Shown here: piece after piece, positions 1-27,294 of the stretch
How positions within the stretch are numbered: position 1 is the stretch's first letter
How the letters are laid out: the number at the start of each line of letters is the position of its first letter
NCBI GenBank assembly: GCA_000004695.1
Contig: CM000150.2
Location: 352,001-416,000 of the forward strand
Reading direction: 5' to 3'
Source of the DNA: Dictyostelium discoideum
Lineage: Eukaryota
DNA length: 64,000 nucleotides
Translations under genes and position numbers: made by a program
The notes under the pieces: model-generated
Told to the model about the DNA's origin: nothing
Database searches by the model: none
Seen by the model: only the letters and a program-made list of their open reading frames with translations

Positions 1-2465
1 TTTTGTTTACGAGCAGCACCAAGTTCACAAGAATTAACTTTAGCAGCGAAACGAAGACTACTTGTTGATTCTTGTAAATCTTTTAATTCTGGAGAGATAT
101 TTACAAACATTAAAGTTTTTGAATTACCACCAATTGAATTTTGTAAGAGAAAAGTGAGTTTACTATTACGATAGGGTATATGTTGTTCTTTATTTGCCAA
201 TGCTGAAATTACATCACCAAGTGATGATAAACTTTTATTGATTGCTTGAGTTTCTTTGAGTTGTTTACCTTCTACACCAGATCTTGAAACACGTTCTGAA
301 CCAGCCAAATCAATAAGATTCAAAAGACCTTGAGTACGTTCAGATGATTGTTGATTATAACCAATTAATTTCAATTGGAAAACCGTATGAGAACGTGATG
401 ATCTCTCATTACAAAGTGTTTTTGCAACTGATCTATTTTTATTTGCCAAATTGAGTAATTCATAGACTTGAGATGGATGTGTAACTGGTACAACTGTCAT
501 ATTAGTAACAGTGGTTACATTTGTATCTGGATTATGTTTAATTTCATATTTTATTTCATTTGATTTCGAGTTACCTCCAGTAGTAGTGGTAGTAGTATTT
601 AAAAGATCATTAATAGTTTCATTATAAATCTCTAAAAAGAAACATTCAATTTGATAAGTCCAACCTTTTTCAGTTAGATCTTGAATGGATGAGAAAATCT
701 TTTCAACAGTTCTTGGTATCATACCACGTTGTGATGGTACTTTTAGGTCACCTAAAATACTATGAGTTTTACCTGAACCAGTTTGACCATATGTAAAAAT
801 GCAAGTATTATAACCATCCAATGAAGATTGAACCAATTGTGAAATATCTTCAAACACCAACTCTTGAGTTGAAGAAGGACCAAATACACGATCAAATGTA
901 AACGTTGATTTCTTTATCGATGCTTCACCATTGAAAGAGTCAATGGTTGGTGATTTCACTTCAACCAAATTATCAGTACCTGCTGGTATATTGAAAACTG
1001 AGCCGTTTGCACCCTGGCCTGAGGAGAAGTCGGGTCTAATCCTACAGAAAACTCTAATGTTTCCTTTAAGTTCTTGAATTGTATTATGTAATTTTCTACG
1101 AACTTTTTCATCGGATCTACTCTTTTCCAAGAGTTCCCTATTCTCTTTCCTCAATGACTCAATCTCGGTATCCCTTTCACGCACCAACTGATTCAAACGT
1201 AATATTTCATCATCAAGATCCTTTGTAACATCTTTCATATTATTGAATTTCTCATCGACTTGAATGGCTTTCAATGATGATGATCTAATCTCATGTTGTA
1301 AATCCAATATCATTTGATTGGATTGTTGTAAATCTCTCTCCATATTATCCTTTAAAACTGAAACTTGACTAACCTTATAATGAGCCTCCATTAATTCTTT
1401 TTCTTTTTCTTTTAATGATTGTAAAACATTTTTTAATTCTAATTTAATTTTTTCAACTTCTTTATTTTTTTCTTCAAAATCTAATCTAGTTTTAATATCT
1501 TGAATTGAAAGTGATACTAAAATAAAATAAAATAAAATAATTAATTAATTAATTAATTAATTAATAAAAAAAAAGTTACAATTGTATATTAAATTTAAAT
1601 TTTAAAACATACATCTTGGTGGCTTTAATTGTTCACTTATATTATCGAATTGAGATTGTAAATTACCTCTAACAGTTTGAGTGAATTGATCGATTTTATT
1701 CATTCTTTCATGAAGTGCATGTTGTTGTTGTAAATCAAAACTACTATTATTACTGCAACTACTACTAATACTTATATTATTATTATTATCATTATTCAAT
1801 GTTGTTGATGTTGTTGTTATTGTTGTTGGAGAAGAATACATTGTTGAAAAGAAATTTGATTTTTCAAATTTAATCGAAGAATTTAATAAATTACTATTTG
1901 GTGATATTGTATTATTTTGTACTGGTGATAATATATTATTATTACTATTACTACTATTATTACTATTGATATTGATATTGTTATTTTTATTATTAATATT
2001 ATTATTATTCATATTTGTATTTAATTTTGAAATTGGAGTTATAGGTTTTTTAAAATTTGAAGTTAATGGTTTATGAGTATCGTCTAATTTCTTTTTAACA
2101 GTTGGTCTAATATTAGTTGTTGGATTATTTCTTTTTTGCATTAATAATGCTCTACTATGATGTGATGAATTTAATTGTGATATTTGCATACTAACATTAT
2201 TAATGCTATTTTTAAGTGGATTATTATTGCTACTACTACTTTCAATATCTTCTAATTTTATATCTGTATTCGTTAAAAGTGGTTGGTGGTATTGTTGTTG
2301 AATGAATTTTGAATCTGTTGAGGGTGGATATGAAATTCTATCGTTTGATTGTGACGATGATGATGCTGGTTTTCTTAATAAACTTGGTCTACTATTGATT
2401 GTATTAGTAATTATATTTAATGGTTGAGATTGTGATTGAGATGAATATAGTTGTCTTTTTTCCAT
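1..2465 (-). CDS. Kinesin-14 family motor protein (C-terminal motor), 5' part of gene. Exon 1 is 1613..2465 (ATG at 2465); a ~95-nt intron spans 1517..1612 (GTATGT...AG); exon 2 is 1516..1 and continues past the window edge, with the stop just off-window.
   Basis: Joining the exons on the minus strand gives a continuous kinesin motor: neck RVFCRIRP, P-loop GQTGSGKT, switch I NERSSRSHTVF, switch II LNLIDLAGSERV, C-terminal SLRFAAKVNSCELG. The N-terminal exon is Asn/Ser-rich and a coiled-coil precedes the motor, consistent with minus-end kinesin-14 (possibly Dictyostelium kif2; symbol not asserted). Confidence 0.85.
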
Positions 2466-3118
2466 TCTAATCTTTCTATATTTTTTGAGTAAACGTGAAT
2501 TAAAAATCCTTTAAAGAAATAAATATAGAAATACCTTTTATTTTATTTCTATATTTATATATATATTTTAATAAACTAAGGAAAAAAAAAAAAAAAAAAT
2601 CAAAAGATTTAAAAAAAAAAAAAAAAATTAAAAGTATATACAAATGAATTTGATTTTTATTTTATTTTATTTTATTTAAATATTCATACAAATAATAAAA
2701 AACAAAAAAAAAAAAAAAAAAACAAAAGAAAAAAAAAATTAAAAGCCAATTTCATAAATTATGAAATTTTTAAATTAGTCGTTGATTTTTTTTTTTAAAA
2801 ATTTGGGGGGAAAAAAAAAAAAAAAGATAAACCACACGCTCTAGGTTATTATTATTATTATTGGTAATGTATTATGTTTAGGCTATTATATAATTCAATT
2901 TGTTATCATCATGGTTGTGTTTATTCTTTCATCCCCCCCCCCCCCCCCCCCAAACAGATTAGTTTCAATGGTTTAAAAATTGTTGTATTTATATTTTTTT
3001 TTTTTTTTAATTTTTATTTTTATTTTTAATTTTAATTATATAGAGTGAGTGAGATATATATTAGTTTTTTTTTATTTCTTAGACAAAAAATTGATTACTT
3101 TAATTTTTTTTTTTTTTT

Positions 3119-3150
<32 letters not shown>

Positions 3151-3158
3151 TTTTTTTC

Positions 3159-3773
3159 TTATGGAGACATTTCAATTAAACATTTAACAAAATCTTTTTC
3201 ATATTGAGAATTTAATAATAGATCAGTTGTTAAAACTGTTGATCTTAAAAGACCAGGACTGAAAACCATAGCAACATTATCGATATCCATTTTTGAGTAT
3301 TGAGCATAATGAGGTTGAGAGACATTCTTTAAGAAAGGTATTAAGAAATTGAGTACCTCTTTATTTTGATCTGGGATCAATGAGATGATACGTGAGACCT
3401 CCTCTTTGGAACGACTTTTAATGGCATCATTATAGAGTTCGGATGGAATGATTGGATGAACCAATTCTCTAAGCCAAAGTTTCAAAAGACCAGCCAATAC
3501 ATGAGGATCCTGAGTATCCAATGAGAAATCATGTTCATTAATTTGTTTCTTTAATCTATTCACCTCTGTACCACTACCAGTTATACGGAAAATACCCTCT
3601 GTATAGGGACCATTTAAGCTCATAATACTCTCTGTCAACAATTTAAGTATCAATGGATAAGGTAATGATGATGGTGATAAAGATTGAGCATCTCTTTGAT
3701 TCTCCATAATTTGTGATAATGTATTATTAAAAATATTTTGATTTACAATTGTGTTATCGGATGATGATTTCTT

Positions 3774-3804
<31 letters not shown>

Positions 3805-5213
3805 GATTTCTTTTCTTCCTCTTCTTTCTTTTTTTTATCTTTTTTCTCTTGTTCTTCTTTTTTCTTTTTATCTTTTTTCTCTTGTTCTTCTTTACCTTTT
3901 TTCTCTTTTTTCTCTTTCTTTTCTGAATCTTCTTTCTCCTTTTTAATACGTTCACGTTCTCTACGTTCACGTTCTTCTTGATCACGTTTCTCTTTTAACT
4001 CTGCAGACTTTGAAGCTGATCCTAAAATTTTATCATCAAAAAATGGTGTTGCAACTGGTGGTGATAAACCATGTTGTAAACGATTAACTAACATTGTATT
4101 TAAATCTTGTGATAACCTTTTATTTACAACTGAATTATCTATACTATTACGTTTTAATGGTGATATCGATACAATTGGTGGTGGTGTTGTTGATTGTTGT
4201 TGGTTGTTGTTTGATGGTATATATGGAACAAAATTATTATTATTTATATTTATATTTGGTGGTGGTGGTAGTATTATATTATTATTATTATTGTTTATAT
4301 TATTTATATTATTTGAATTATTTTGATTTTGTTGAGGTTTTATAAATTGACCCATTTGTTTTGGATCTAATGATGCTGATCTTGTTGGTACTGGTGGTGG
4401 TGGTGGTTTAAAATATCCTACTGAATTTTGTGATTGTAAACTTGGTGAGCCATTTGATGATGCACTATTAACAAATGATCCACTGTTGTTATTATTATTA
4501 TTGTTATTATTAAAAAAAGATGGAGGTGGCGGTATGCCTCCGCTAGTACTTAAGTTTAAACTATTTATATTATTATTACTATTGTTATTACTATTATTAT
4601 TATTATTAGCACTTCCATCACTATTTCGTAATATTCTTGGAGGTAATGGAACACCACCACTTAGATTTAATGAAGATGATGATGGTGAAGTTGTTGTTGA
4701 TGAAGATGGTGACAATGTTGGTGGTGGTGGTAAATTGGTTGGTGGTGGTGGTGGTAAATGTACAATTGGTGGAGGTGGTGGTGCCGTATTTCCATTTAAA
4801 GGTGGTGATGATACAATTCGTTTTGGTAAAATTGGTGATGATGATGGTGAAAGTTTCTTTATAAATGCTGGTGGTGGTGGCATTGTTGTCGTTGTTGTTG
4901 TTGTTGTTGTTGGTGGTCCACCATTATTATTAGTTGGTGTTGGTGGTACTTTTCTTGCTACATTTGGTGATGATGATGGTGATTGTCTAATTGACGATGA
5001 TGGTGATGACGATGATGATGATGGATTAATATTATTCGATGGTGATTGTGGTGATAGTGATGTTCCTACCTCTCTTGGTGAGGTATTTGATGCTAATTGT
5101 TGTTGTGTTGGTTGAGGTGGTGGTCTAACTGGTTTTAATTGTACACTGTGTAATGATGGTAATTGAAATCCTTGTGGTGATGATTGAACTGGTGGTGGAG
5201 GTAATTTACTCAT
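3159..5213 (-). CDS. RhoGAP-domain protein with a long proline-rich (FH1-like polyPro) N-terminal region and a Lys/Glu-rich charged linker
   Basis: Single 684-aa ORF. C-terminal domain [21 protein letters not shown]...[15 protein letters not shown]...[12 protein letters not shown] matches the RhoGAP catalytic core including the arginine finger (GIFRITGS). The N-terminus holds PPPP runs and a poly-Thr tract. Confidence 0.8.
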
Positions 5214-5367
5214 TTTTGTTTATTTTTTTTTTTACTATTTACTATTTACTATTATAACTTTAATATATTAAATTTTAATGATTATTACAATGAATATTAT
5301 ATATATATATATATTAAAAAAATAAAAAATATAAAATAATAATAATAAAATGTTAATATTTATATTG

Positions 5368-5398
<31 letters not shown>

Positions 5399-5815
5399 AT
5401 AAATAAAAAAAAAAAATAAAAAAAAGAAATAATTAAAAATGTTTGTAAATAAAAAAAACTATAAAAGTGTCAATAGACAGATATATATAAATATATAAAT
5501 ATATATAAATATAAATACAGTTGAAATGTCTATAGGTGAATTATGTTATGATTGTTGTATGATGACTATTATTGCTATTTTTAGAAGTAAATACTAATAA
5601 TCTTGAAAGAAAAAACTTTTTTATTTTTATTATTTTTTATATTCTTTTTCCTTTATGATTTTTACTCCTCCTTTTTAAATTTGTAATAATTATGTATATG
5701 TATTGTTTGCTATCAATTATATTTAATTTTTTATTATTTTTTTATTATTTTTTTATTATTTTATTAATTTTTTAATTTTTTAATTTTTTAATTTTTTTTT
5801 AATTTATTATTATTT

Positions 5816-5846
<31 letters not shown>

Positions 5847-5897
5847 TATTTTTTTGGACAATGGCATAAAAGAAATTATATACTTTTTAAAATGATA

Positions 5898-5931
<34 letters not shown>

Positions 5932-6108
5932 AAAATGTGGGTGGGTATTAAAAATGTTTTGTGTGTGTGTCATTAAAAATGTGTGTTTTGTTTTTTTTTT
6001 TATTATTTTTATTATTATTTTTATTATTATTATTATTTTTAATTACTTTTTTTTGTTTAATAATATTGTTGATATTGGTATTCTTTTCTTTATTTATTTT
6101 TATTTTTT

Positions 6109-6931: not shown

Positions 6932-8995
6932 TTAAATTAAAATTAATGACGATGATAATAATAAAATTAAAATAAATGAAATTGATAAAATTGAAGATTC
7001 ATTTGGAATATCTAGCTTACTACTATCATTGATAGTACTACCTGTAGTTGTGGTAGGTGATAATTTTACAACTCTAACGAATAAGATTTCAATATCTTTT
7101 GAACCTGTGTTGATGATTTCAAAATCAGCATTTCTGCCAACTGAAATTGAGTTTGTGAATTGAATTGATGTGAAATTAAATGTAGCAGTATAATAAGTAT
7201 TTGTAGTACCAACAGATACAGAAGAGGTGTTAGATACCACGTTATTGCTATCTTTATATCTAATTAACCATTGAGTAGATTGTAAATCTAAATAGGTTAC
7301 TTTAATTTGAACATTTGAAATTGTACCAAATGAAAAATCGTCATCTACAAAGAACGACATTGTATTATTACCAGTTACCAAATCAGTTTGTCTACCTTCA
7401 TAAGAGATACCTAAATCAGTATTTCCACCATAAATATTAGTTTTTTTTACACTGCCATTCTTTGTGTATGCACCGCCCTTGATATCCCTTTGAAGTAAAT
7501 TAGTCTCCAAATTCTTAATATAGGGCTTACCAGGCCAATTCAATGAGGTGTCGTAAATCCAGAACGTATCTTGTGCATTTCTGAGTGTCGCCCATGCATC
7601 GAATGCTGTTGTCGATTGCTTTCCTAATGAATAACGCATCCAATTGTAAAAATCGGGGTAGGTGCTTAGATAACTACTAGATGCCACTAAATATAGCCAA
7701 TTTACACCCATTTGTAGTGCTTTCAAATTCGACATTTTCACAGCATAATAAATATTTGATGATGCAACTGTAAAACCACAATCATTATAACACTCATTCT
7801 CAGTACCAATAACTCTATTTGGATTTGCTTGAAGTAACCATGACTTGTTAAATTTTAAATATCCACTAGTTGTATCAATCGTTACACCATATGCTGGAAT
7901 TTCTGATAAATGAAAATTAAATATCTCTGTAATACCATTTCTAATACCCATACCTTTTGAAACTGCATCTCTTGCTAATAAATTCTTTCCACTTGGCCAA
8001 CTATCAACATCAAATGGATAATCTTCACCTGTATAAACTAATTTATAACTATATGGTCCAAATATATCAACTAAATCTTTCATTGCTTGTTGAAACCATG
8101 TATTAAATGACTTTTTTTTTTTTCAAAAAATTAATTAATAAATAATTATTATTTTTAAAAGATTCTTAAAGTGTGTGTTAACTTACAGCATAAGAATAAC
8201 CTGTTGAAGTTGAATAATTTCCAATTTCAGTAAAATCAAATTCACACCAATTAAAAGCACCTGGTACATAAATGAATTTTAATCTTGGATCAGCACGCAT
8301 ATTTAAATCTAAAAATATCTTTTTTTTTTTTTTTTTTTTTTTAATTTTTTTTGATTTAAAATTTTAATTAGTTTTTTTTTTTTTTTTTTTTTTGGAAAAT
8401 CTCTGTTGGATTTTTTTATAATAAATAGTTACATGTGAATACATTTTTTTAATTTCTCCCCAAACACAAGAATTCCAAATTGGTAAATGAGCATCACCGT
8501 CATAATCTTGACCAATACTAGCGACATTACAAAATGATTGAATCCAAGTTGGTGCCCAATTTACACCAGAATTCCAAATTCTCATCCAAAATTGTTTAGT
8601 TGTTGAATTTTGAGAATTGAATGAACTAAATGTCATATCTTTTACAGAAGCACTTGTTGTAAAAGTGTAAACATCTTTTGATGGATTAATTTGTTTCCAA
8701 GCAATATCAAATACTCCTACATTGATATTAACATTTGCAGTTCTTTCCTCTGAAAAGAATCCAGAATTTGTTGTTATTGTTGCCCAATTTGGTACTGTCC
8801 AATCATCACCTGACTTTTTTTTTTGAATTTTTTTTTAATTTTTAATTATTATTAATATTACTATTATTTTTATTATTATTATGTTTAAAATAAAAATCTT
8901 ACTTTTAAATCAGGTCCACTAACTGTACCATTAATAAAAGGTATTGAAACAATTGTTAAAAAAATAAAAATAAAAATAATTGTCAAATATTTCAT
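6932..8995 (-). CDS. Secreted, probably GPI-anchored protein (~594 aa), putative glycoside-hydrolase-like. Four exons: 8903..8995, 8433..8813, 8187..8318, 6932..8110.
   Basis: Exon 1 encodes signal peptide MKYLTIIFIFIFLTIVSIPFINGTV with a GTAAGA donor. Exon phases are all 0 and exon lengths are multiples of 3. The C-terminus ends with a Ser-rich stretch plus hydrophobic tail (ILSISFILILLLSSSLILI), typical of a GPI signal. Trp/Tyr/Asn-rich mature region (NWAPTWIQSFCNVASIGQDYDGDAHLPIWNSC; NWCEFDFTEIGNY). The exon 2 donor is non-canonical GTAACT, so that junction is less certain. Confidence 0.6.
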
Positions 8996-13941: not shown

Positions 13942-14312
13942 ATGACAGTTTATTTAACAAGACATGGTTTAAGAGAGGATTGGATTAATAAATTATGGAG
14001 ATCTACAGCATTAAGACCATCAGATCCACCTTTATCGGCACGTGGATTTCATATAGCTAAAGAGTTGGGTATTTTCAGTAAAACTTTAGGATTAAAACAT
14101 ATTATATCATCACCAATGGAGAGATGTATTCAAACAAGTACAGCAATAGCTGATGAATTAGATTTGCCAATTAAAATTGATTATGGTGTTATTGAATGGG
14201 TTGGTTCTGATCCAAGACCTGATGATATTTTAAATCCACTTTCAAATGGTTTGTAGTAATAAAAAATTAAAAAATAATTTAAAAAAAATTAAAAAAAATT
14301 AAAAAATATTCT

Positions 14313-14368
<56 letters not shown>

Positions 14369-14747
14369 TTATATAGAGGAATTAAAATTAAAATATCCAA
14401 GAATTGATTTAGATTATAAATCAACAACAAATAATATACCAACAAAAGAATCAATTGAAGAATTACATGAAAGAACAAAGATATCAGTTGATCAAATCAT
14501 TGAAAAGTTTAAAGATGATGGACCAATCATTATCGTTTCTCATGCCGCTACAATGATTGCTTTAGGTAGAGGTATTTTAAATGATAATAATGCACCATTA
14601 AGATCTGGTGTTTGTAGTTTATCCAAATTTAATTTTAATACTACAGAAAATAAATGGGAACTTGAATATACTGGTAAATCTGATTTCATGGAAGATGGAG
14701 AACAATCTCATTGGACTTTTAAACGTCCAGTAATTGAAAAATCTTAA
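13942..14747 (+). CDS. Histidine phosphatase superfamily (phosphoglycerate-mutase-like) protein. Two exons, with the intron at ~14249..14376.
   Basis: N-terminal catalytic RHG motif (YLTRHGLRED) and a second-His region IIVSHAATMIALGRG in exon 2. Exon 2 shares the frame of ORF 14553..14747 back to an acceptor near 14376. The donor is either GTTTGT at 14249 or GTAGTA at 14253 with AG at 14401; both are atypical, so the junction is uncertain. Confidence 0.65.
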
Positions 14748-14852
14748 TAATAATAATTATAAAATAAAAATTGTAGTAATAAAAAAAAAAAAAAAAAAAA
14801 TTAATAATATTATTATTTATTTTTTAAAAAAAAAAAAAAATTTTTTCGAATT

Positions 14853-14885
<33 letters not shown>

Positions 14886-14914
14886 TTTCATTTTTTTTTT
14901 CATTTCATAATAAA

Positions 14915-15540
14915 GTGCGAAAAAAAAAAAAAAAAATGAAAAAACAACAAACAAATAATAACAATAATAAAAGTGTAAATAATAAAAGTAATAGTGGCAA
15001 TGTAAATAATAATAATAATAACGATGTAAATAAAAAAGTTGAAGAAATGTATTTAGAAAAAGAAGAATTAAGAGAAGATATTATTATAGATAAAAGAAAA
15101 GTAAATTTTCAAATAATAAATAGATATTAAAAAAAATAAAATTTAATATTAATTCCATATTTGGAAAAAAAAACTTACATTTATAAAAAATATATTTTAT
15201 TTTATTTTTTATTTTTTTTATTTTCTTATTTTTTTATTTTTTTATTTGTTTTTTTTAGATTTTAGATTTAGATCAAAGAAATAATTTAAATATAGAAGCT
15301 TTGGATAATATTGTAAATATCAAATCTGAAAATAAGAATAAAAATGGTAAATTATGGATATATACAGGTGATATTTTTATTCAAATGAAAGAAAATAATG
15401 CAAAGGAATTAATAATTAAAGAAAACGATGCAATTGAATCAGAAATTGAATCCCTTCAAAGTGGGTTGGTTGAAAAACAACAAAATTTAAAAAAGTTAGA
15501 AATGGATTACCAATTAGAGAGAAATAAACTATTTACATAA
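14915..15540 (+). CDS. PDRG1-like prefoldin-type (beta-class) small coiled-coil protein. Exons 14915..15100 and 15259..15540.
   Basis: GTAAAT donor after ...IIIDKRK, then acceptor ttttttag. The product ...IDKRKILDLDQRNNLNIEALDNI...NGKLWIYTGDIFIQMKENNAKELIIKENDAIESEIESLQSGL parallels human PDRG1 (ADKRQIVDLDTKRNQNREGLRAL...GNMFIKMP...KEMIEKDQDHLDKEIEKLRKQL). Confidence 0.6.
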
Positions 15541-15623
15541 ATTATTTAAAATTCGTTTTTTTTTTAAAAAAAATATTTATTTATTTATTTTATTTTATTT
15601 TATTTATCTATTTTTAATTTCAC

Positions 15624-15656
<33 letters not shown>

Positions 15657-15739
15657 ACCCCAATTTCACTTAAAAAACCAAATTTTCAAGTTTTCACCAA
15701 AACAAAAAAAAAACTTGATTTTATTTTTATTTTTATTTT

Positions 15740-15776
<37 letters not shown>

Positions 15777-16154
15777 CCATTTATGTAAATTTATAACCTC
15801 TAAAAAAATGTGAAGTCACTCGTTTTGCTATTGTTGGGATACTGTCTTTTGTAAATGGAAATGGATTTTATTTTTATTTTTTATTTTGTTTTTTTTTTTT
15901 TTTTTTAATTATAATATTTTTAATTTTTTTTGTTTTTTAATAATTTTTTTTTTTTTTTATTTTTTTTTTTGTTTTTTTTAAGTTTATCTTAATAAATATT
16001 AAAATAAAAAATAAATAAAAAAAATAAAATAAAATAAAATACTTTCACAAAACAACCAATTATAAAAAAAAAATAAAAATAAAAAACAAAGAAAAAAAAA
16101 AAATATTTAAAAATTAAAAAAAAAAGTAATTAAAAAAAAAAAAAAAAAAAAAAA

Positions 16155-16942
16155 ATGTATTCAATTAATACTCTGTTATGTAATAATTTTGGAGATGTTA
16201 AATCAATTTTACAAAATGATACATTTAGAATATTATCATGTTATGATTCAGAAAGGGATCAAAGAATAGGATATGATGATGCATTATTATTTTTTCAAGA
16301 TTCTGGAACACTTGACCCTCAAACTGATGTCGATCATTTATTTGGTGAAGATCATTCCAAAGTTTTAACCTATATAGAAATATTTAATGTAAAATATCTT
16401 TAAATATTTAAATTTAAAAATAATAATTATTAATTTCTTTTTTTTTTTTAAAATTTTAGTATATATTTGATCAATTAAAAAGGAATATTTTTATTTTACA
16501 TAGAGATTTCTTAGTATTTTTGAAAAATAATGAAGATAATGTTGATGATATTGTTTCTTTTAAAGATCTAGAAGATTATGTTAAAGGAAAGCAAGTGAGA
16601 GCACATGTAAATCCTCGTATTGCCTCACTCAATTTAATTTTGGAAATTAATGGAAATGATGATAGTTTTAAATGTTCAATAGAGAAAATAAGAGTTGTAT
16701 GTATTAAATATTTAAAAATAAATAATAAAAAAAATTCAAAGGAATATATTTTTTTATAATTATATAAAATTTCTAATAAAAAAGTAATAATTACTATTAA
16801 TACTATTTTTATATTTATATAGTATATAACCGGAAAATTACTTGAATACGATTTAAAGGTAAAAAATGATATTGACAAAGAAATTACCAAAGAAGTTCAT
16901 AATAAAAGTAGTATTGAAAGGATAGGAAACCCCGTCCAATAA
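16155..16942 (+). CDS. Hypothetical protein, paralog A of a tandem pair (~196 aa). Exons 16155..16388, 16460..16696, 16823..16942.
   Basis: Donors are GTAAAA and GTATGT, all exons are phase 0, and exon lengths are multiples of 3. Conserved with the downstream gene: N-terminus ...NDTFRI.S.YD.E....G...AL.FF.DSGT..P..DV..L.GED..K and a middle exon ...VNPRIASLNLILEINGND. Confidence 0.6.
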
Positions 16943-16964
16943 TAATAATAATAAAAATAATATT

Positions 16965-16999
<35 letters not shown>

Positions 17000-17406
17000 A
17001 ATTTGGATAACATATCTCTTAATTTCTCAAGGATATTATTTTTTTCAGAATCTAAAAAACAATTAAAAAAATTTATAAATAAAAAAAAAAAAAAAAAAAA
17101 AGATAAAAAAGATTTTATTTAGTCTTTTCATTTTTTTAGATTTTAAATTTTATTTTTTTAATTTATTTTTTTATTTTTTTTTACATTTTAATTTATTTTT
17201 ATTTTTAATTTTTTTTTTTTTTTTTTTTTTTATTTATTTATTTTTTTTTTTCCAAAAACAATAAAAACAAAAAATTAAATCCAATTGAAGTTATTTTTTT
17301 TTACAAGTACAAACTAAAAATAAAAATAAAAATAAAAATAAAAATAAAAATAAATATAAAAATAAAAATAAATATAAAAATAAAAATAAAATTAAAATAA
17401 ATTAAA

Positions 17407-18016
17407 ATGTATACTATTCATACTGGTCCACGATCGTTTGAGGAAGTTAAATTATTTTTAAGAAATGATACGTTTAGAATTATTTCACACTATGACACGG
17501 AAAAGATAAATAGTGTGGGTTTCTATGAAGCACTTTCATTTTTTGAAGATTCTGGTACAAATTTCCCTGAAAAAGATGTTTATGATTTATATGGTGAAGA
17601 TATTTATAAAAGATTATATTATAATGATATTTTTATGGTAATTACTATTTTTTTTTTTTTTTTTTTTTTTTTCCAAATTAATAATTTAAAATATTAAAAA
17701 AAATATAAATATATATATATATAAATAGCATTTAATAGAGCAATTAAGAAAGAATATATTTCAAATTTATAGATTTTTTCAATACTATTTTGAAGAATTT
17801 GATTCATATATCATAACAAGCAAAGAAATTGAAGAATTATTTAAAAAACAATCAATTGTTCGTATAAATCCAAGAATGGCTGCTTTGAATTTAATTCTAA
17901 GAGTAAATGGAAATGATCATCTTGTTACAAATACTCATAAAATTAATACTGTATGTTTAAATTATTTTTAGAAAAATATCTATAGATACTAATTTTATAT
18001 GAATAAATATTAAAAT

Positions 18017-18059
<43 letters not shown>

Positions 18060-18211
18060 CCTAGTATATTGATTTTACATTAAGAGAACATGATCGAAAG
18101 GTATTAAAAGATTTAGAAAAAGAATTTAAAAAGGAAAAAAGAATTGAAGAAGATATTGAATTTAAATTACCAAAATTTTCAAAATTCAGTCAACCCATTT
18201 CACAGCACTGA
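17407..18211 (+). pseudogene. Paralog B of the same family, with an apparent +1 frameshift in exon 2, so possibly a pseudogene or a sequence error. Exons 17407..17637, ~17728..17949, 18065..18211.
   Basis: Intron positions match gene A. Exon 2 begins HLIEQLRKNIF in one frame and continues QIYRFFQYYFEEFDSYIITSKEIEELFKKQSIVRINPRMAALNLILRVNGNDHLV in the +1 frame. The switch lies in the T-run at ~17757-17761 (atatattttcaa); removing one T restores alignment with gene A (NIFILHRDFLVFL vs NIFQIYRFFQYYF). Confidence 0.45.
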
Positions 18212-18401
18212 TTTTAATTAAATCTATATAGATTTAATTAATAAAAAAATAAAAAATAAAAAAAAAATATAAAAAAAAAAAATAAAAAAAAAAAATAAAA
18301 AAATAAAAAAAAAAAAAATATATTTTTTAAATTAAAAATCAATCATTTTTGATTTAAAAATAATAAACAAAATTGTTTTTATTATTATATTTAAAAAATT
18401 C

Positions 18402-18440
<39 letters not shown>

Positions 18441-18812
18441 TTTTTACCATTAAATTTTAAATAAAAAAAAAAATTTTAAAATAACCCGATTTGCATTGCA
18501 ATGTTCAAAAAAAAAAAAAAAAATATTTTTTAATTAAATTTAAATTTTTTTGGGCAATTTTTTATTTTATAAAAAACCTTGATTAAAAAAAAAAAAAAAA
18601 TTTTTAAAAAATTAAAAAAAAATTGAAAAAAAAAGCCTCTCCGATTATTTTTTATTTTTTTTTCCGACTATCAAAGTCAAAAAATTCTTTTTGATTTACC
18701 TGGTCAAAACGGGACTTATCCTCTTTATTTTATTTTTTTTTTATTAAAATTTTTTTTATTTTTTATTTTTTTTTTTTAACCCATCAATAAAAATTATTAT
18801 TTTTATTTTTAA

Positions 18813-18849
<37 letters not shown>

Positions 18850-19017
18850 CACTCCATTCGTTTTCATTATATTAATATTAATTTATTATTTGTAATAAAG
18901 AAAATTTTTTAAAGAAATCAAAATTTTTCTTTTTTTTTTTTTTTTTTCTTTTTTATAATTTCTTTTTTTTTTTATATAAAATAATTTTTATTTTTATAAA
19001 TAAAAAATTATAATAGA

Positions 19018-19288
19018 ATGGGAGAACAAAAATATGATAGATTAAACGAAAGCGAATCAATTAACGTTAAAGTTCAAGATATTAAAGAATATGAAGAGGC
19101 ATCATCAGATAATATGAGAGCTCAAGATATCAATTATCAAACTCAACATAATACAGATACTACAGGTAGTTTAATTAAATTTATGTTTTGGTTATTTTGT
19201 GTTTGTTTCTCATTAGCGGGTGTACAATTTGTTTGTAAGTATTTGAAAATTTTTTTTTTTTTTTTTTTATATATCAATTCATAGGGAA

Positions 19289-19381
<93 letters not shown>

Positions 19382-19778
19382 ATTATTAAAATTATTAATA
19401 CATATTATATTATATTATTTTATTTTATATTATATTATATTATATTATAATATATTATATTATGTTATATTATATTTAAATAATAAATAGATTCAATTCA
19501 ATTTGCATTAGGTACACCACTTTTTATTAATAAATTTAAATTAAGTAATTCAACAACATCAATTATTCAATCAATTGCAGGTCCAGTATCTGGTTTTCTA
19601 GTTCAACCAATTATTGGTGTATATTCCGATAGTTGTAAAAGTAAATGGGGTAGAAGAAAACCATATATCGTTTTTGGTGCTGTTTTTGTTGGTATGTTAT
19701 ATAATTTAATCAATTTTTTTTATTTTATTTTTTATTTTTTACTTTTTTATTAATATCTTTATAATCATTTGATTGTTA

Positions 19779-19859
<81 letters not shown>

Positions 19860-21018
19860 GTAATTGGTTTATTAGTTATTGCATTTTCACCACAAATTGG
19901 TGAATTATTTGGAGATAAAGCTGATGGCGCAACATCATCTGATCATAAATCAGGTTTAGCAATTGCTATAGCAGGTTTTGTTGTTATGAATCTTTCAGTA
20001 AATATTATGCAAGGTCCAACAAGATCATTAGTATCTGATGTTTGTCCAATGGATAAACAAAATCTTGCAAATTCAATGGCTGTCAATGTTATGGGTTTTG
20101 CTTCAATCATTGCAAATGTTATTGGTTCATTCTTTGCAACAAATGAAAATTCATATAGAGATCTTTTTGGTAAATAAATAATTATTATCTCAATTTATTA
20201 ATTTTTTTAATATATTATTAATATATATATATATAATTAACATATTTATAATTAATAATAATAAAGTAATTGGAGCAGGATTTGTAGCATTTTCAGTTGT
20301 TCCAACAATTATAGTAGCAAAAGAGAAACAATTAGATTCAAGTATTAAATCACCATCATCACCATTAGAAGCATTTATAAGAATTAAGAGAGCATTTGCA
20401 ACCATTCCAAAAGAATTGGCATTAATTTCATTGGTATTCTTTGTATCATGGTTTGGTTTTTCACCATTTATGGTTACCAATACATCATATTTCCAACAAA
20501 ATGTATTCAATGGCGAAAGTGAAGGTTTGAAATTTGGTTTCTATGGTCAAGCTGTTTTCTCTGCAGTTTCATTCTTTTTCTCATTCTTCCTCTCTGGACT
20601 TTGCAATATTTTCGGTGAGAAGATCATTTACTCTGCAAGTCAATTGATTGCTGGTGCCTCTTTAATATTATTTTTGGTTTTCGATCACGCTCAACCATGG
20701 TTAGCAATCTTATTGACTGGTGTCGTTGGTATTAATTTCTGTGTATTCAATGCGATCCCATTCGCTATGATGGTCAAAGTTATCTCAAGTAAAGATATTG
20801 GTTTATATATGGGTGTTTTAAATTCTTCAGCTGTAGTAAGTCAAACCATCTCTATCTTTACCTCTGGTAGAGTTGAAGCTGCAAAAAATCAAAATGTTGC
20901 TTGGGGTATTGCATATGGTGGTCTCTTTACATTATTGGGTGTATTTTTAGCTTTTATCTTACCAAAATCAAAGAAAGTAACAGAACAAATTAATGAAGAA
21001 TCACCATTAATTAAATAA
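19018..21018 (+). CDS. MFS transporter of the GPH/SLC45/plant-SUT sucrose-H+ symporter family. Four exons: 19018..19234, 19491..19691, 19861..20169, 20267..21018.
   Basis: All junctions are phase 1 with GTAAGT/GTATGT/GTAAAT donors, and the exon-length arithmetic is consistent. The signature GPVSGFLVQPIIGVYSDSCKSKWGRRKPYIV matches the SUT/SLC45 motif GPLSGLLVQPLVGxxSDRCTSRFGRRRPFI. There are 12 predicted TM stretches. Intron 1 carries an ~84-nt poly-A and intron 2 a (TTA)28. Confidence 0.75.
19296..19379. repeat. ~84-nt poly(A) homopolymer in intron 1 of the MFS transporter gene
   Basis: Uninterrupted A-run. Other long homopolymers: T62 at 59411-59472, A60 at 45722-45781, A57 at 54201-54257, T49 at 27784-27832. 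Confidence 0.9.
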
Positions 21019-21178
21019 AAAATAATAATAATAATAATAATAATAATAGATTAAATAATATATAATTTTTGTATTCATATTCATATTTATTAGATAAAAA
21101 TAATAGTAAAAAAAAAAATTAATAAAAAAAAAAAAAATAAATAATAAATTATATAAATAAATTATTTATATTTAAAAA

Positions 21179-21228
<50 letters not shown>

Positions 21229-21252
21229 CTTTTTTTATTTAATTTATTTAAT

Positions 21253-22947
21253 TTATTTATCTAAAATTGTTAAATTAAATTTTAATTTTACAGTCATAAT
21301 TTTTAAAGGTGGACCAACACATTTTACAATTAATTGATATTCACGAACAAAAGAAGCATCAACACCAGTTACTTCAGATGGTAAAATATTAGGAGGTATT
21401 GAATAAAAGAAATCACCTTCGAAACGATCTTTAATTAATGGGAAACGATTTGAATGATGAAATTCACATCTACCCAATTTTTTAATGGTTCTTTTTGGTT
21501 TTCTTTCATAGGCAGTACCAGTGATTTCCATTCTAGTTTCGGTCATTAATAGATAGGCTACAACCTTTTCAACTTTTTTAGTTGTACCATTATCAATTGT
21601 GAACCCAAATTGAATGGTTTCACCGGCTCTATAGAATTTTCTTTGTAATTGAATTGAAAAGAATAATTGTTTACTCGATCCAACAAATGTACGAATTTCC
21701 TCTTGTGATAAACCAGTGGTAGATTCAAAACACATTGGATGATAGGCTCGATTATCCTTTACCTTTAATGAAAGATTTGAAAGAGCAAATGGTTTTTGAC
21801 ATCCTGCACAAATAATTGAAACTTGAAAACATTCAGCATGCCAATTTCTATCCAATGCTTTAATAGAATTGGTCGAAAGTAATGCATCACATGCTGCACA
21901 TTTATCACCACTAAATGTTAATGGTAATGACGATGTTGCATTATTAAATGAATTATTACTTTGATTAAATTGATGATTTTGTAAAAAATTTTGTTGTGCA
22001 ATTGGCATATTTGAATTTGTTAAAATTTGATTAAAATTATTATTACTATTATTTAAACTATTATTTAAACTATTTGTACTACCATTAAATGATGGAAATG
22101 ATGATAACATTGATTGTGTTGAATTATTATTATTATATGATTGTTGTTGAAATTGTTGTTGTTGAGGTTGTTGAGGTTGAGGTTGTTGAGGTTGTTGTGG
22201 TTGTGGTTGAGAAGCAGCAAATGGTTTAAGTACTTCTATTCTATCTAAATAAATTTTAGCTTCATCACTAAGATTCTTTTTTAAAGTTGGATCAGGTTCA
22301 CTTTTAATTGCCATTAAATAATAATTACATGCTTCTTCATAACATTGACTTGCACCTCTATAATTTTTAACTTCTTCTTCTTTACGACCTTTAAGTGAAA
22401 AGTTTTTAGCTGCTTCATATGCTTCAACTCTGCTTAATTGCCTATTGGTTGATTGATTATTACCAATTGATAATGAATTTAATTTTGAAAGTTGTTCATT
22501 TTTATTTAAATTTGGTGGTGAAAATCCATTACTTGTATTATTATTATTATTATTAGTATTACCTGCTGATGGAAATGATGATAAAATACTATTATTATTA
22601 TTATTAATTTGTTGTTGTTGTTGTTGTTGTTGTTGATTTATTGATGGTGAAATTGATGAAGGTACAGATGGAAAACTAAATTGTGATTGTTGTGGTTGTG
22701 ATGGTTGTGATGATTGTGGTTGTTGTGATAATAAATTTTTAATAAATTTATTTCTTTGAGAATATTCTTCAATTTTTGAAGAGATTAAAGCATTTTTTGA
22801 TGGTTCTCTCTCTGCTACTAATGCTAATTTTAAATTTAAAACCGCTTGATCATAAAGATTACATGCTAATGAATAATTTTTTTGATTATCTGCATCAATT
22901 GCTGATTTAACTAATTGTAATCCAGTTTGTAATATTTCGCTTGACAT
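21253..22947 (-). CDS. MIT-domain protein: two MIT-like helical domains, Gln/Asn-rich linkers, a Cys/His-rich (LIM/zinc-finger-like) segment and a C-terminal beta-sandwich (arrestin/Ig-like) region
   Basis: Single 564-aa ORF. N-terminal MSSEILQTGLQLVKSAIDADNQKNYSLACNLYDQAVLNLKLAL...EEYSQR is MIT-like. A second copy is RVEAYEAAKNFSLKGRKEEEVKNYRGASQCYEEACNYYLMAI. A CAACDALL...WHAECFQVSIICAGCQKPF Cys cluster follows. The C-terminal domain call is tentative. Confidence 0.6.
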   Translation of the reverse strand: MSSEILQTGLQLVKSAIDADNQKNYSLACNLYDQAVLNLKLALVAEREPSKNALISSKIEEYSQRNKFIKNLLSQQPQSSQPSQPQQSQFSFPSVPSSISPSINQQQQQQQQQINNNNNSILSSFPSAGNTNNNNNNTSNGFSPPNLNKNEQLSKLNSLSIGNNQSTNRQLSRVEAYEAAKNFSLKGRKEEEVKNYRGASQCYEEACNYYLMAIKSEPDPTLKKNLSDEAKIYLDRIEVLKPFAASQPQPQQPQQPQPQQPQQQQFQQQSYNNNNSTQSMLSSFPSFNGSTNSLNNSLNNSNNNFNQILTNSNMPIAQQNFLQNHQFNQSNNSFNNATSSLPLTFSGDKCAACDALLSTNSIKALDRNWHAECFQVSIICAGCQKPFALSNLSLKVKDNRAYHPMCFESTTGLSQEEIRTFVGSSKQLFFSIQLQRKFYRAGETIQFGFTIDNGTTKKVEKVVAYLLMTETRMEITGTAYERKPKRTIKKLGRCEFHHSNRFPLIKDRFEGDFFYSIPPNILPSEVTGVDASFVREYQLIVKCVGPPLKIMTVKLKFNLTILDK

Positions 22948-23317
22948 TATTATTGTTAATATTATTATAATTTTTTTTTTTTTTTTTTTTTTTAATAAAT
23001 AAATAATAAATAATAAATAATAAATAAATAAATAATAAATATATAAATAAATAAAAAATTAAAATTAAAACAAGATATTATTGGTTCTGTTTTTTTTAAT
23101 AAAAAAAATAAAAATAAAAATAAAAATAAAAATTTAATTAATATGTAAATTCAAAAAAAAAAACAAAAAAAAAAAAAAAAAAAAAACAAAAATAAAAATA
23201 AAATAAAATTTTTTTTTAAAATTTATTAAAAAATCTAATTATTTGAAAATATTCCAACCCTCATATATAATGCGTTTGTTATAACCTTCAACAATACTAT
23301 TTTTAAAATATTTTTAA

Positions 23318-23347
<30 letters not shown>

Positions 23348-23349
<2 letters not shown>

Positions 23350-24736
23350 GAAATCAATTAATTTTCTAAATAAAACCAAAGGTATTTTTAATTATTATAA
23401 TAATTTTCAAAGAAATCATTGTAGTATTGTTTTAAATGGAAATAAAGAAAATAAAATTTCATCATTGTATAGTTGGGGTTGTAATAAAGACGGTAAACTA
23501 GGTAATAATAATGAATTGGTTGATTGTGAAGCATTTCCTAATAGAATCTCAAGTTTTCAAATTAATAATAATCAAATAATTGATAATCAATCATTTAGTA
23601 ATATTGGTATAAAAGATATAGAATGTGGTCATTATCATACAATGATAATTGATAAAAATGATAACTTATATCAATGTGGTTGGACCTCATTTGTAGGTAT
23701 TAATAATTTAACAAAAAATAATAAAAATCTAATACCAACTATTATAAATCCATCATCATCATCATCATCATTTAAAATTAAAAATGTTAGTGGTGGTAGA
23801 AGACATACATTAATATTAACAAAAGATGGTAAAGTTTATTCATATGGAATTGGATCAGAATATCAATTAGGTCATGGTGATAATCAGAATAGATCAGAAC
23901 CAACTGAAATTGAACAACTTTCAAAATATGCTATAATTAAAGTTGTAAGTGGATGGGGACACTCAATAGCATTATCAAATGATGGTAAATTATATTCATG
24001 GGGATTTTCAAACGATTCTCAAACTGGTCATGGATTCTTAATTGATAATCCAATCAAATCACCAAAATTAATCGCCAGTGATTTCAATTTCAAAAATGTT
24101 TTCTCTGGTAGTGATTTCGTAATCACAATCACTGATAAAGGTGAACTAATTACATTTGGTTCAAATGAATTTGGTCAATTAGGTAATGGTACAATCATTA
24201 ATCAAGAATTTCCAATCAATATAATTAATAATCATTTTGGTGGTGGTGGTGGTGGTGGTGGTGCTAATTCAAAATTTAATAAAATTATTGAATCAGCAGG
24301 TAAAGGTAAATTTGATAAAAGGATATCATGTGGATTTTCACATTGTTTAATTTTAAATGATGATGGTGAATTATTTACATTTGGTTGGAATGGTAATGGT
24401 CAATTAGGTATTGGACGATCCAATAGTAATAATAATAATACATATGAATCAATACCGATAAAATTAGATTCAAGTTTATTTAATGGTGAAAAGATTGAAA
24501 TGGTATCTGCTGGTAGAAATCATTCAGTTGCTTTGACTGAATCTGGTAGATTATATCTTTGGGGTAACTCAAATCATGGTAAACTTGGCAATGGTACTGT
24601 ATCTGGTAATATCTATGAACCAACGGAATTATTTGATTTCGATGAATCTGTACCACAATCATTTCCACTAGAATTTCAAAAAGTTTTAAATATTTCAACT
24701 GGTTTTGATCATACAATTATAGAATTATTAGAATAA
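23348..24736 (+). CDS. RCC1-repeat (RCC1-like domain) protein
   Basis: Single 462-aa ORF with at least 6 RCC1 blades: GRRHTLILTKDGKVYSYGIGSEYQLGHGDN, GWGHSIALSNDGKLYSWGFSNDSQTGHG, SDFVITITDKGELITFGSNEFGQLGNG, FSHCLILNDDGELFTFGWNGNGQLG, NHSVALTESGRLYLWGNSNHGKLGNG. Confidence 0.8.
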
Positions 24737-24991
24737 AAACAAATAAATTAATAAACTTTTTTTTTTATTTTTTTATATTTCTTTTTTTTTTTATTTTATT
24801 TATTTATTTAATTTTTTTTTTCAATTAAAAAAAACACAATTATTTTAATATTTATTTGTAATGTTATATATATTTTTTAAAAAAAAGTAATGATTGACAA
24901 TTAGTATTATTATATTATTAAAATTATTATTATTATTACTATTTGGTTTGATTTTTTTTTTTGGATTTTAGTTTTTTTTTTTTTATTATTA

Positions 24992-27294
<2,303 letters not shown>

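Follow-up and report, generated by a model that had tools for sequence, protein, structure and literature searches.

Two adjacent genes in Dictyostelium discoideum DNA pose a problem that is easily stated. The genes resemble each other, and an earlier note, made from the letters alone, read them as tandem paralogs with conserved intron positions of which the downstream copy, gene B, carries a +1 frameshift in a run of T's near position 17757. Is the reading frame of gene B broken? If it is not, what kind of protein do the two genes encode, and how did there come to be two of them? Positions are given here for the window, the whole stretch of 64,000 nucleotides that was analysed.

The answer that we reach for the pair as a whole, and hold with considerable confidence, is that A and B are intact, functional tandem duplicates without a frameshift. 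Their products, of about 195 amino acids, are predicted to be all-helical, with four EF-hand-like units of Cbp stock; the calcium loops depart from the canonical pattern. The significance is mainly one of annotation: a lineage-specific tandem duplication with asymmetric divergence, and a frameshifted copy that does not exist. What is new is that two 'hypothetical proteins' and their orthologues can probably be placed as lineage-restricted, loop-degenerate EF-hand proteins of the Cbp type.

Structure of the gene pair and the reading frame of gene B

The window has about 22% GC, long intergenic poly(A) and poly(T) tracts, and short GT..AG introns. Three-frame translation and explicit exon models place both genes on the plus strand, with three exons each and 464 bp between them. 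We take the loci to lie on chromosome 1 of D. discoideum AX4. Gene A (DDB_G0267578) spans 16155-16942. In the ATG-to-GT model, exon 1 (16155-16388) holds codons 1-78 and the first EF-hand-like pair, with loops at residues 31-42 and 64-75. Intron 1 (16389-16459; 71 nt, 6% GC) runs from GTAAAATA to AATTTTAG in phase 0. Exon 2 (16460-16696; 237 nt) supplies codons 79-157 and the second EF-hand-like pair, including NPRIASLNLILEINGND. It is followed by intron 2 (16697-16822; 126 nt, GTATGTAT to TTATATAG, phase 0) and by exon 3 (16823-16942), which ends in the stop codon and encodes a charged C-terminal helix (residues 152-190 in the AlphaFold2 (AF2) model). A minus-strand ORF of 104 amino acids at 16576-16890, lying across intron 2 and parts of the flanking exons, is of low complexity and was set aside as a chance ORF in AT-rich DNA.

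Direct reading of the spacer between the genes (16943-17406) finds AT-rich sequence with poly(A) and poly(T) tracts and (AAAAT)n-like repeats. Gene B (DDB_G0267580) then occupies 17407-18211. Its exon 1 (17407-17637) carries codons 1-77, and intron 1 (17638-17728; 91 nt, 5% GC, phase 0) runs from GTAATTAC to ATAAATAG. Exon 2 (17729-17950; 222 nt), which contains the alleged frameshift site, translates as one open frame. Intron 2 (17951-18064; 114 nt, phase 0), with a long poly(T) tract, extends from GTATGTTT to TTTCCTAG, and exon 3 (18065-18211) encodes a charged C-terminal extension and the stop codon. The spliced products are 196 (A) and 199 (B) amino acids long.

All four introns are GT..AG and phase 0, with 5-9% GC against 22-28% in the exons. 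They interrupt the two proteins at equivalent places: IFN/YIF in A corresponds to IFM/HLI in B, and IRV/YIT to INT/YID. The proteins are 43% identical over 189 residues (blastp, E 7e-43). Adjacent, on one strand, significantly similar and alike in intron positions and phases, A and B are tandem duplicates, and this part of the earlier description was borne out at a level well beyond chance. Of the motifs quoted in its support, NDTFRI.S.YD, FF.DSGT and NPR.A.LNLIL..NGND are present, but 'VNPR' occurs in A only, B having 'INPR'. In the 64-kb window tblastn found these two copies and no third. A blastn comparison of the A locus with the B locus was dominated by low-complexity A/T matches and is uninformative on non-coding similarity; ARAGORN found no tRNA in the window.

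The reference annotation already contains both genes with these exon models, and names each protein 'hypothetical protein'. An exact-sequence look-up identified the A product over its full length with XP_647143.1 (DDB_G0267578, Q55GP1) and the B product, residue by residue over its full length, with XP_647144.1 (DDB_G0267580, Q55GP0). A full-text literature search found no mention of either gene identifier.

What, then, of the frameshift? The earlier note quoted a 12-mer with four T's, atatattttcaa, as the place where the frame changes. This string occurs nowhere in the window. The sequence at 17754-17764 is ATATATTTCAA, with three T's at 17754 rather than the longer run, and it is in frame within exon 2, whose single-frame translation reads HLIEQLRKNIFQIYRFFQYYFEEFD...KINT (in full, HLIEQLRKNIFQIYRFFQYYFEEFDSYIITSKEIEELFKKQSIVRINPRMAALNLILRVNGNDHLVTNTHKINT). 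When one T is added in silico at the 17754 site, the original frame reads QLRKNIFSNL and stops, and QIYRFFQYYF appears in the next frame. This is exactly the split of QLRKNIF from QIYRFFQYYF that had been described, so the 'frameshift' is a one-base reading error: one T was miscounted in the earlier reading, and the window carries no frameshift. The misreading was possibly helped by the site's spanning a 10-base block boundary of the printed sequence. With the frameshift go the three explanations offered for it, a young pseudogene, programmed or unusual splicing, and a homopolymer sequencing error. Single-base frameshift calls in AT-rich, homopolymer-laden DNA need mechanical re-reading before they are interpreted.

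The longest run of A or T within the coding exons of either gene is 6 bases. Homopolymers of about 30-50 A's or T's do occur in introns and flanks (17951-18064, which is B intron 2; 15625-15654; 15745-15774; 16969-16998). Indel-prone tracts are real near A and B, but lie outside the reading frames.

Orthologues, selection and the age of the duplication

Besides AX4, four loci were fetched: those of another D. discoideum assembly (GCA_054859385.1), D. citrinum, D. dimigraforme and D. firmibasis. Exon models rebuilt for each locus show A and B orthologues intact and adjacent in all four. Throughout the five genomes every A and every B gene has three exons, with an exon 2 of constant length: 237 nt in A and 222 nt in B. 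Homologue searches returned consecutive locus tags for the A and B orthologues in another D. discoideum assembly, D. cf. discoideum and D. firmibasis, and B-type proteins in D. citrinum and D. dimigraforme too. The order His_Phos_1 gene, small gene, A, B, MFS transporter is common to the four fetched loci.

By the Nei-Gojobori method (NG86; ten species pairs for each gene), dN/dS is 0.09-0.26 for A and 0.14-0.38 for B. These ratios indicate that A and B are both under purifying selection. Between AX4 and D. firmibasis dN is 0.08 for A and 0.21 for B, and non-synonymous change in B runs about 2-2.5 times faster than in A.

Could gene B nevertheless be a young pseudogene, or depend on programmed frameshifting or a micro-intron to get past a +1 shift near 17757? 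We give this next to no credence. Nothing in the sequence speaks for it, the split appearing only after an extra T is inserted, and much speaks against it. The window reads ATATATTTCAA and lacks the string with four T's. B has an uninterrupted ORF of 199 codons over three exons, as it does in the four other genomes, and the open 222-nt exon 2 is kept in all five. Its product is identical to the annotated XP_647144.1. Finally, its dN/dS in the ten pairs lies well away from the value near 1 of neutral evolution; under such purifying selection B is not a pseudogene.

In D. purpureum a single gene, DICPUDRAFT_82317 (XP_003291649.1, F0ZW64; 173 aa), occupies the syntenic site, with the small gene on one side of it and the MFS transporter on the other. 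UniProt names its product 'EF-hand domain-containing protein'. A tblastn search found no second copy at the locus, and the spacer after the gene is only 564 bp. The protein is 40% identical to A and 33% to B. Like the pair, it has the same flanking genes, the motifs NDT.R, FF.DSG, NPR and NGNDD, and an intron 2 at the same position and in the same phase. Unlike the pair, it is a single copy, it lacks most of the charged C-terminal helix, and its first intron interrupts codon 20 (phase 2), that of A and B following codon 78 or 77. It is also somewhat nearer to CbpH, a calcium-binding protein discussed below, than A and B are.

The simplest reading of these comparisons would be a tandem duplication within the D. 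discoideum species group, after the split from D. purpureum, followed by asymmetric divergence in which B was the faster-evolving and more degenerate copy. Alternatively, a copy may have been lost in D. purpureum, in place of a later duplication in the D. discoideum group.

The introns have a history of their own. Intron 1 of A and B (16389-16459 and 17638-17728; after codon 78 or 77, phase 0) is missing from the D. purpureum orthologue. The D. purpureum intron in codon 20 (phase 2; locus positions 8060-8169) aligns to the codon of the first cbpH intron (codon 14, phase 1; the D. firmibasis cbpH was compared, locus 3041-3120), with the two one base apart. These first introns could be an old shared intron whose boundary has slid, or the agreement could be coincidence.

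Several further observations concern the assemblies and the neighbourhood. Between AX4 and GCA_054859385.1 (locus 1781-3813), which is labelled D. discoideum, dS is 0.065 for A and 0.10 for B, with protein identities of 96% and 92%. Given the diversity of D. discoideum, such dS looks high between strains of one species, and the assembly may represent a cryptic sister lineage. The neighbour order His_Phos_1 gene, small gene, A (and B), MFS transporter, MIT-LIM-Arrestin_C protein, RCC1-repeat protein (window 13942-26233) is common to D. discoideum, D. firmibasis and D. purpureum; next in the window is a PIP5K gene (24992-26233, minus strand). The small gene just upstream of A (15301-15540, plus strand; upstream ORF 14915-15130) encodes 144-179 amino acids in related genomes, has no Pfam match, and keeps its position in all five other loci. 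Farther upstream, Pfam recognises a C-terminal RhoGAP domain (E 4e-31) in a minus-strand ORF of 684 amino acids (3159-5213), which also contains long runs of proline, serine and asparagine. The GC-skew spike of +0.44 at 4001-6000 arises from the minus-strand proline codons of this ORF.

Family placement and predicted fold

The earlier note called the family unrecognised. For Pfam this holds: A, B and the D. firmibasis orthologues have no match to models of the clan EF_hand, such as PF13499 and PF00036, at E of 1 or below, and no family scores above threshold. The D. purpureum protein comes nearest, with a match to PF13499 (EF-hand_7) at E 0.23 and 12.3 bits, below the gathering threshold of 30. 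Matches to DUF5398, Chap-C, Glyco_hydro_4C and Vip3A_N among A, B, two orthologues and the D. purpureum protein were far below cutoffs and inconsistent between paralogues, and were rejected as chance. Among PDB sequences a profile search found nothing at E of 10 or below. For profile and fold methods the statement does not hold, and both point to EF-hand relatives.

A HMMER profile of ten family members, run against 1.84 billion (1.84e9) representative proteins, retrieved four clusters only. Three are the family itself, namely A, B and the D. purpureum gene (E 1.7e-27); the fourth (E 1.1e-4) includes 'Calcium-binding protein H' of D. discoideum (CbpH, Q966Q9), which has 165 amino acids and four EF-hands. 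Aligned by hhalign to the CbpH orthologues, the family gave a probability of 97.3% and an E of 2.4e-11, with 142 collinear columns over all four EF-hand units. A word-indexed search for homologues of CbpH yielded only four close orthologues, so the Cbp profile in this comparison is shallow. In pairwise blastp the D. purpureum protein matches CbpH directly (E 6e-15). A second alignment of the two pairs the N-lobe with the C-lobe, as expected of an internally duplicated EF-hand protein.

The structure predictions run in the same direction. With the 10-sequence family alignment alone, AF2 reached a pLDDT of only 51, and Foldseek matches to that model were not significant (best E 0.69), although the top ones were mostly EF-hand proteins. 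When four CbpH sequences and that of D. purpureum joined the alignment, pLDDT rose to 83.1 and pTM was 0.76; this confident model is partly circular, being conditioned in part on four true CbpH rows. It shows the paired helix-loop-helix arrangement of the EF-hand fold, in four units each with a short antiparallel strand (37-38, 71-72, 109-111 and 149-151), and a long C-terminal helix (152-190). Searched against the PDB with Foldseek, its best 50 matches are all EF-hand proteins, including centrin, Cdc31, troponin C and calmodulin (probability 0.82-1.0), at E-values of only 2e-3 to 2e-2 and TM-scores of 0.3-0.4.

Might A and B instead be true orphans with a novel helical fold, their likeness to CbpH a product of skewed composition? 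The negative Pfam and PDB sequence searches and the low confidence of the family-only model would fit this view. Dictyostelium proteins do have skewed composition, and for this reason a shuffled and reversed control was run. The real hhalign score was 73.5, against 12.9 +/- 2.1 (maximum 20.8) for 100 column-shuffled CbpH alignments, which keep composition, and 11 for the reversed profile. The alignment is collinear across four EF-hand units, the low-confidence model itself retrieved mainly EF-hand proteins, and plain blastp suffices to link the D. purpureum member to CbpH. We regard an orphan fold as very improbable. Homology to a bona fide EF-hand protein is supported by hmmsearch, by hhalign and by the shuffled control, and sequence and model together argue that the A/B family is a divergent branch of EF-hand proteins whose nearest relative is Dictyostelium CbpH.

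Calcium loops and comparison with known systems

Do these EF-hands still bind calcium? A scan for the PROSITE pattern PS00018, which describes the canonical 12-residue calcium loop, found no match in 11 family members, against three in each CbpH control. Loop 1 of A is DSERDQRIGYDD, where positions 3 and 12 are Glu and Asp; that of B is DTEKINSVGFYE, and all B orthologues have Ile or Val at ligand position 5. The D. purpureum protein has Gly at position 12 of this loop. Just ahead of loop 2 three residues are deleted, and at position 1 of that loop A and B have Gly, the D. purpureum protein Asn. Loop 3 reads EDNVDDIVSFKD in A; in B it is shortened by an internal deletion of three residues. Loop 4 has 13 residues in A and D. 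purpureum (NGNDDSFKCSIE), one too many, and in B His or Lys stands at the place of the bidentate Glu. The most conserved positions of the family are largely not ligands: N21, D22, R25, S28, F46, F47, S50, G51, P55, N129, P130, R131, N142, G143 and D146. D31, D66, N142 and D146 are invariant.

All four calcium loops are off the canonical pattern, and calcium sensing appears to have been largely given up, almost certainly in B and plausibly in A. The opposite case is that A and B are working calcium sensors with non-canonical loops, functioning like other Dictyostelium Cbp proteins; in the form that is the main rival to our account, at least A would retain Ca2+ or Mg2+ binding through loops 1 and 3. 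There are EF-hands that work although position 12 is Asp or the loop is of odd length. In A those two loops keep oxygen-bearing side chains at most ligand positions, several of them acidic, and A may on that account still bind Ca2+ or Mg2+; there are also the four invariant Asp and Asn residues, and the nearest relative has three canonical loops. Set against this are the failure of PS00018 to fit any loop in the 11 members, the Gly or Asn at position 1 of loop 2 with three residues gone just before it, the overlong loop 4 of A, and the Ile or Val in loop 1 and the deletion in loop 3 of B. The strongest conservation, moreover, falls outside the ligand positions. On balance we consider both the sensor reading for the pair and retained ion binding in A unlikely, to much the same degree.

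If calcium sensing was indeed lost, what might the proteins do? A and B would descend from the stock of small Dictyostelium calcium-binding proteins (Cbp), with CbpH/CBP8 the nearest recognisable relative, and would have gained the charged C-terminal helix. They may serve as calcium-insensitive or low-affinity adaptors or regulatory subunits with an EF-hand fold. A target helix could be bound through the conserved surfaces NDTFRI, FFxDSGT and NPRxAxLNLIL..NGND together with the C-terminal helix. More tentatively still, and at somewhat less than even confidence, we suggest that the family is a 'dead' EF-hand subfamily limited to the D. discoideum/purpureum lineage, in which calcium sensing gave way to new surfaces and a C-terminal helix, and that the pair acts as a calcium-independent adaptor, for example as a heterodimer. 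If this is true, the pair would be a small example of neofunctionalisation, in which a calcium sensor took on a new role once it had been duplicated in tandem.

How does the pair compare with known systems? CbpH/CBP8 (Q966Q9, EAL63115) belongs to the small Dictyostelium calcium-binding proteins that have four EF-hands (Sakamoto et al. 2003, cited in Kollmar 2006, PMC1634994). The set of 35 Dictyostelium CBPs collected by iterative TBLASTN from calmodulin includes CBP8/cbpH (EAL63115); EAL73242 and EAL73243, the accessions of A and B, are absent from the text and table of that set (Kollmar 2006, PMC1634994). CbpH shares with A and B its genus, a similar size and the collinear layout of four helix-loop-helix units. 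In the multiple alignment it is 21-26% identical to family members and has loop-flanking residues in common with them (YD...A..FF..G..P...LF and E..P....D..Y). The differences are as clear. CbpH has canonical loops and strong Pfam EF-hand matches, and A and B have none; its intron positions are other, and cbpH lies at an unrelated locus. A and B, for their part, have a charged C-terminal helix of 35-45 amino acids, the motifs NDTFRI, DSGT and NPR.A.LNLIL, and deletions in or beside loops 2 and 3.

Outside this stock, calcium-insensitive EF-hand folds are found in myosin essential light chains, in the calmodulin-like domains of alpha-actinin, spectrin and dystrophin, and in the 'defunct' EF-hand domain of calcium vector protein (1j7r). 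Beyond the fold, these proteins have no detectable sequence relationship to A and B. The resemblance would lie in mode of action: like them, A and B may bind their targets without calcium.
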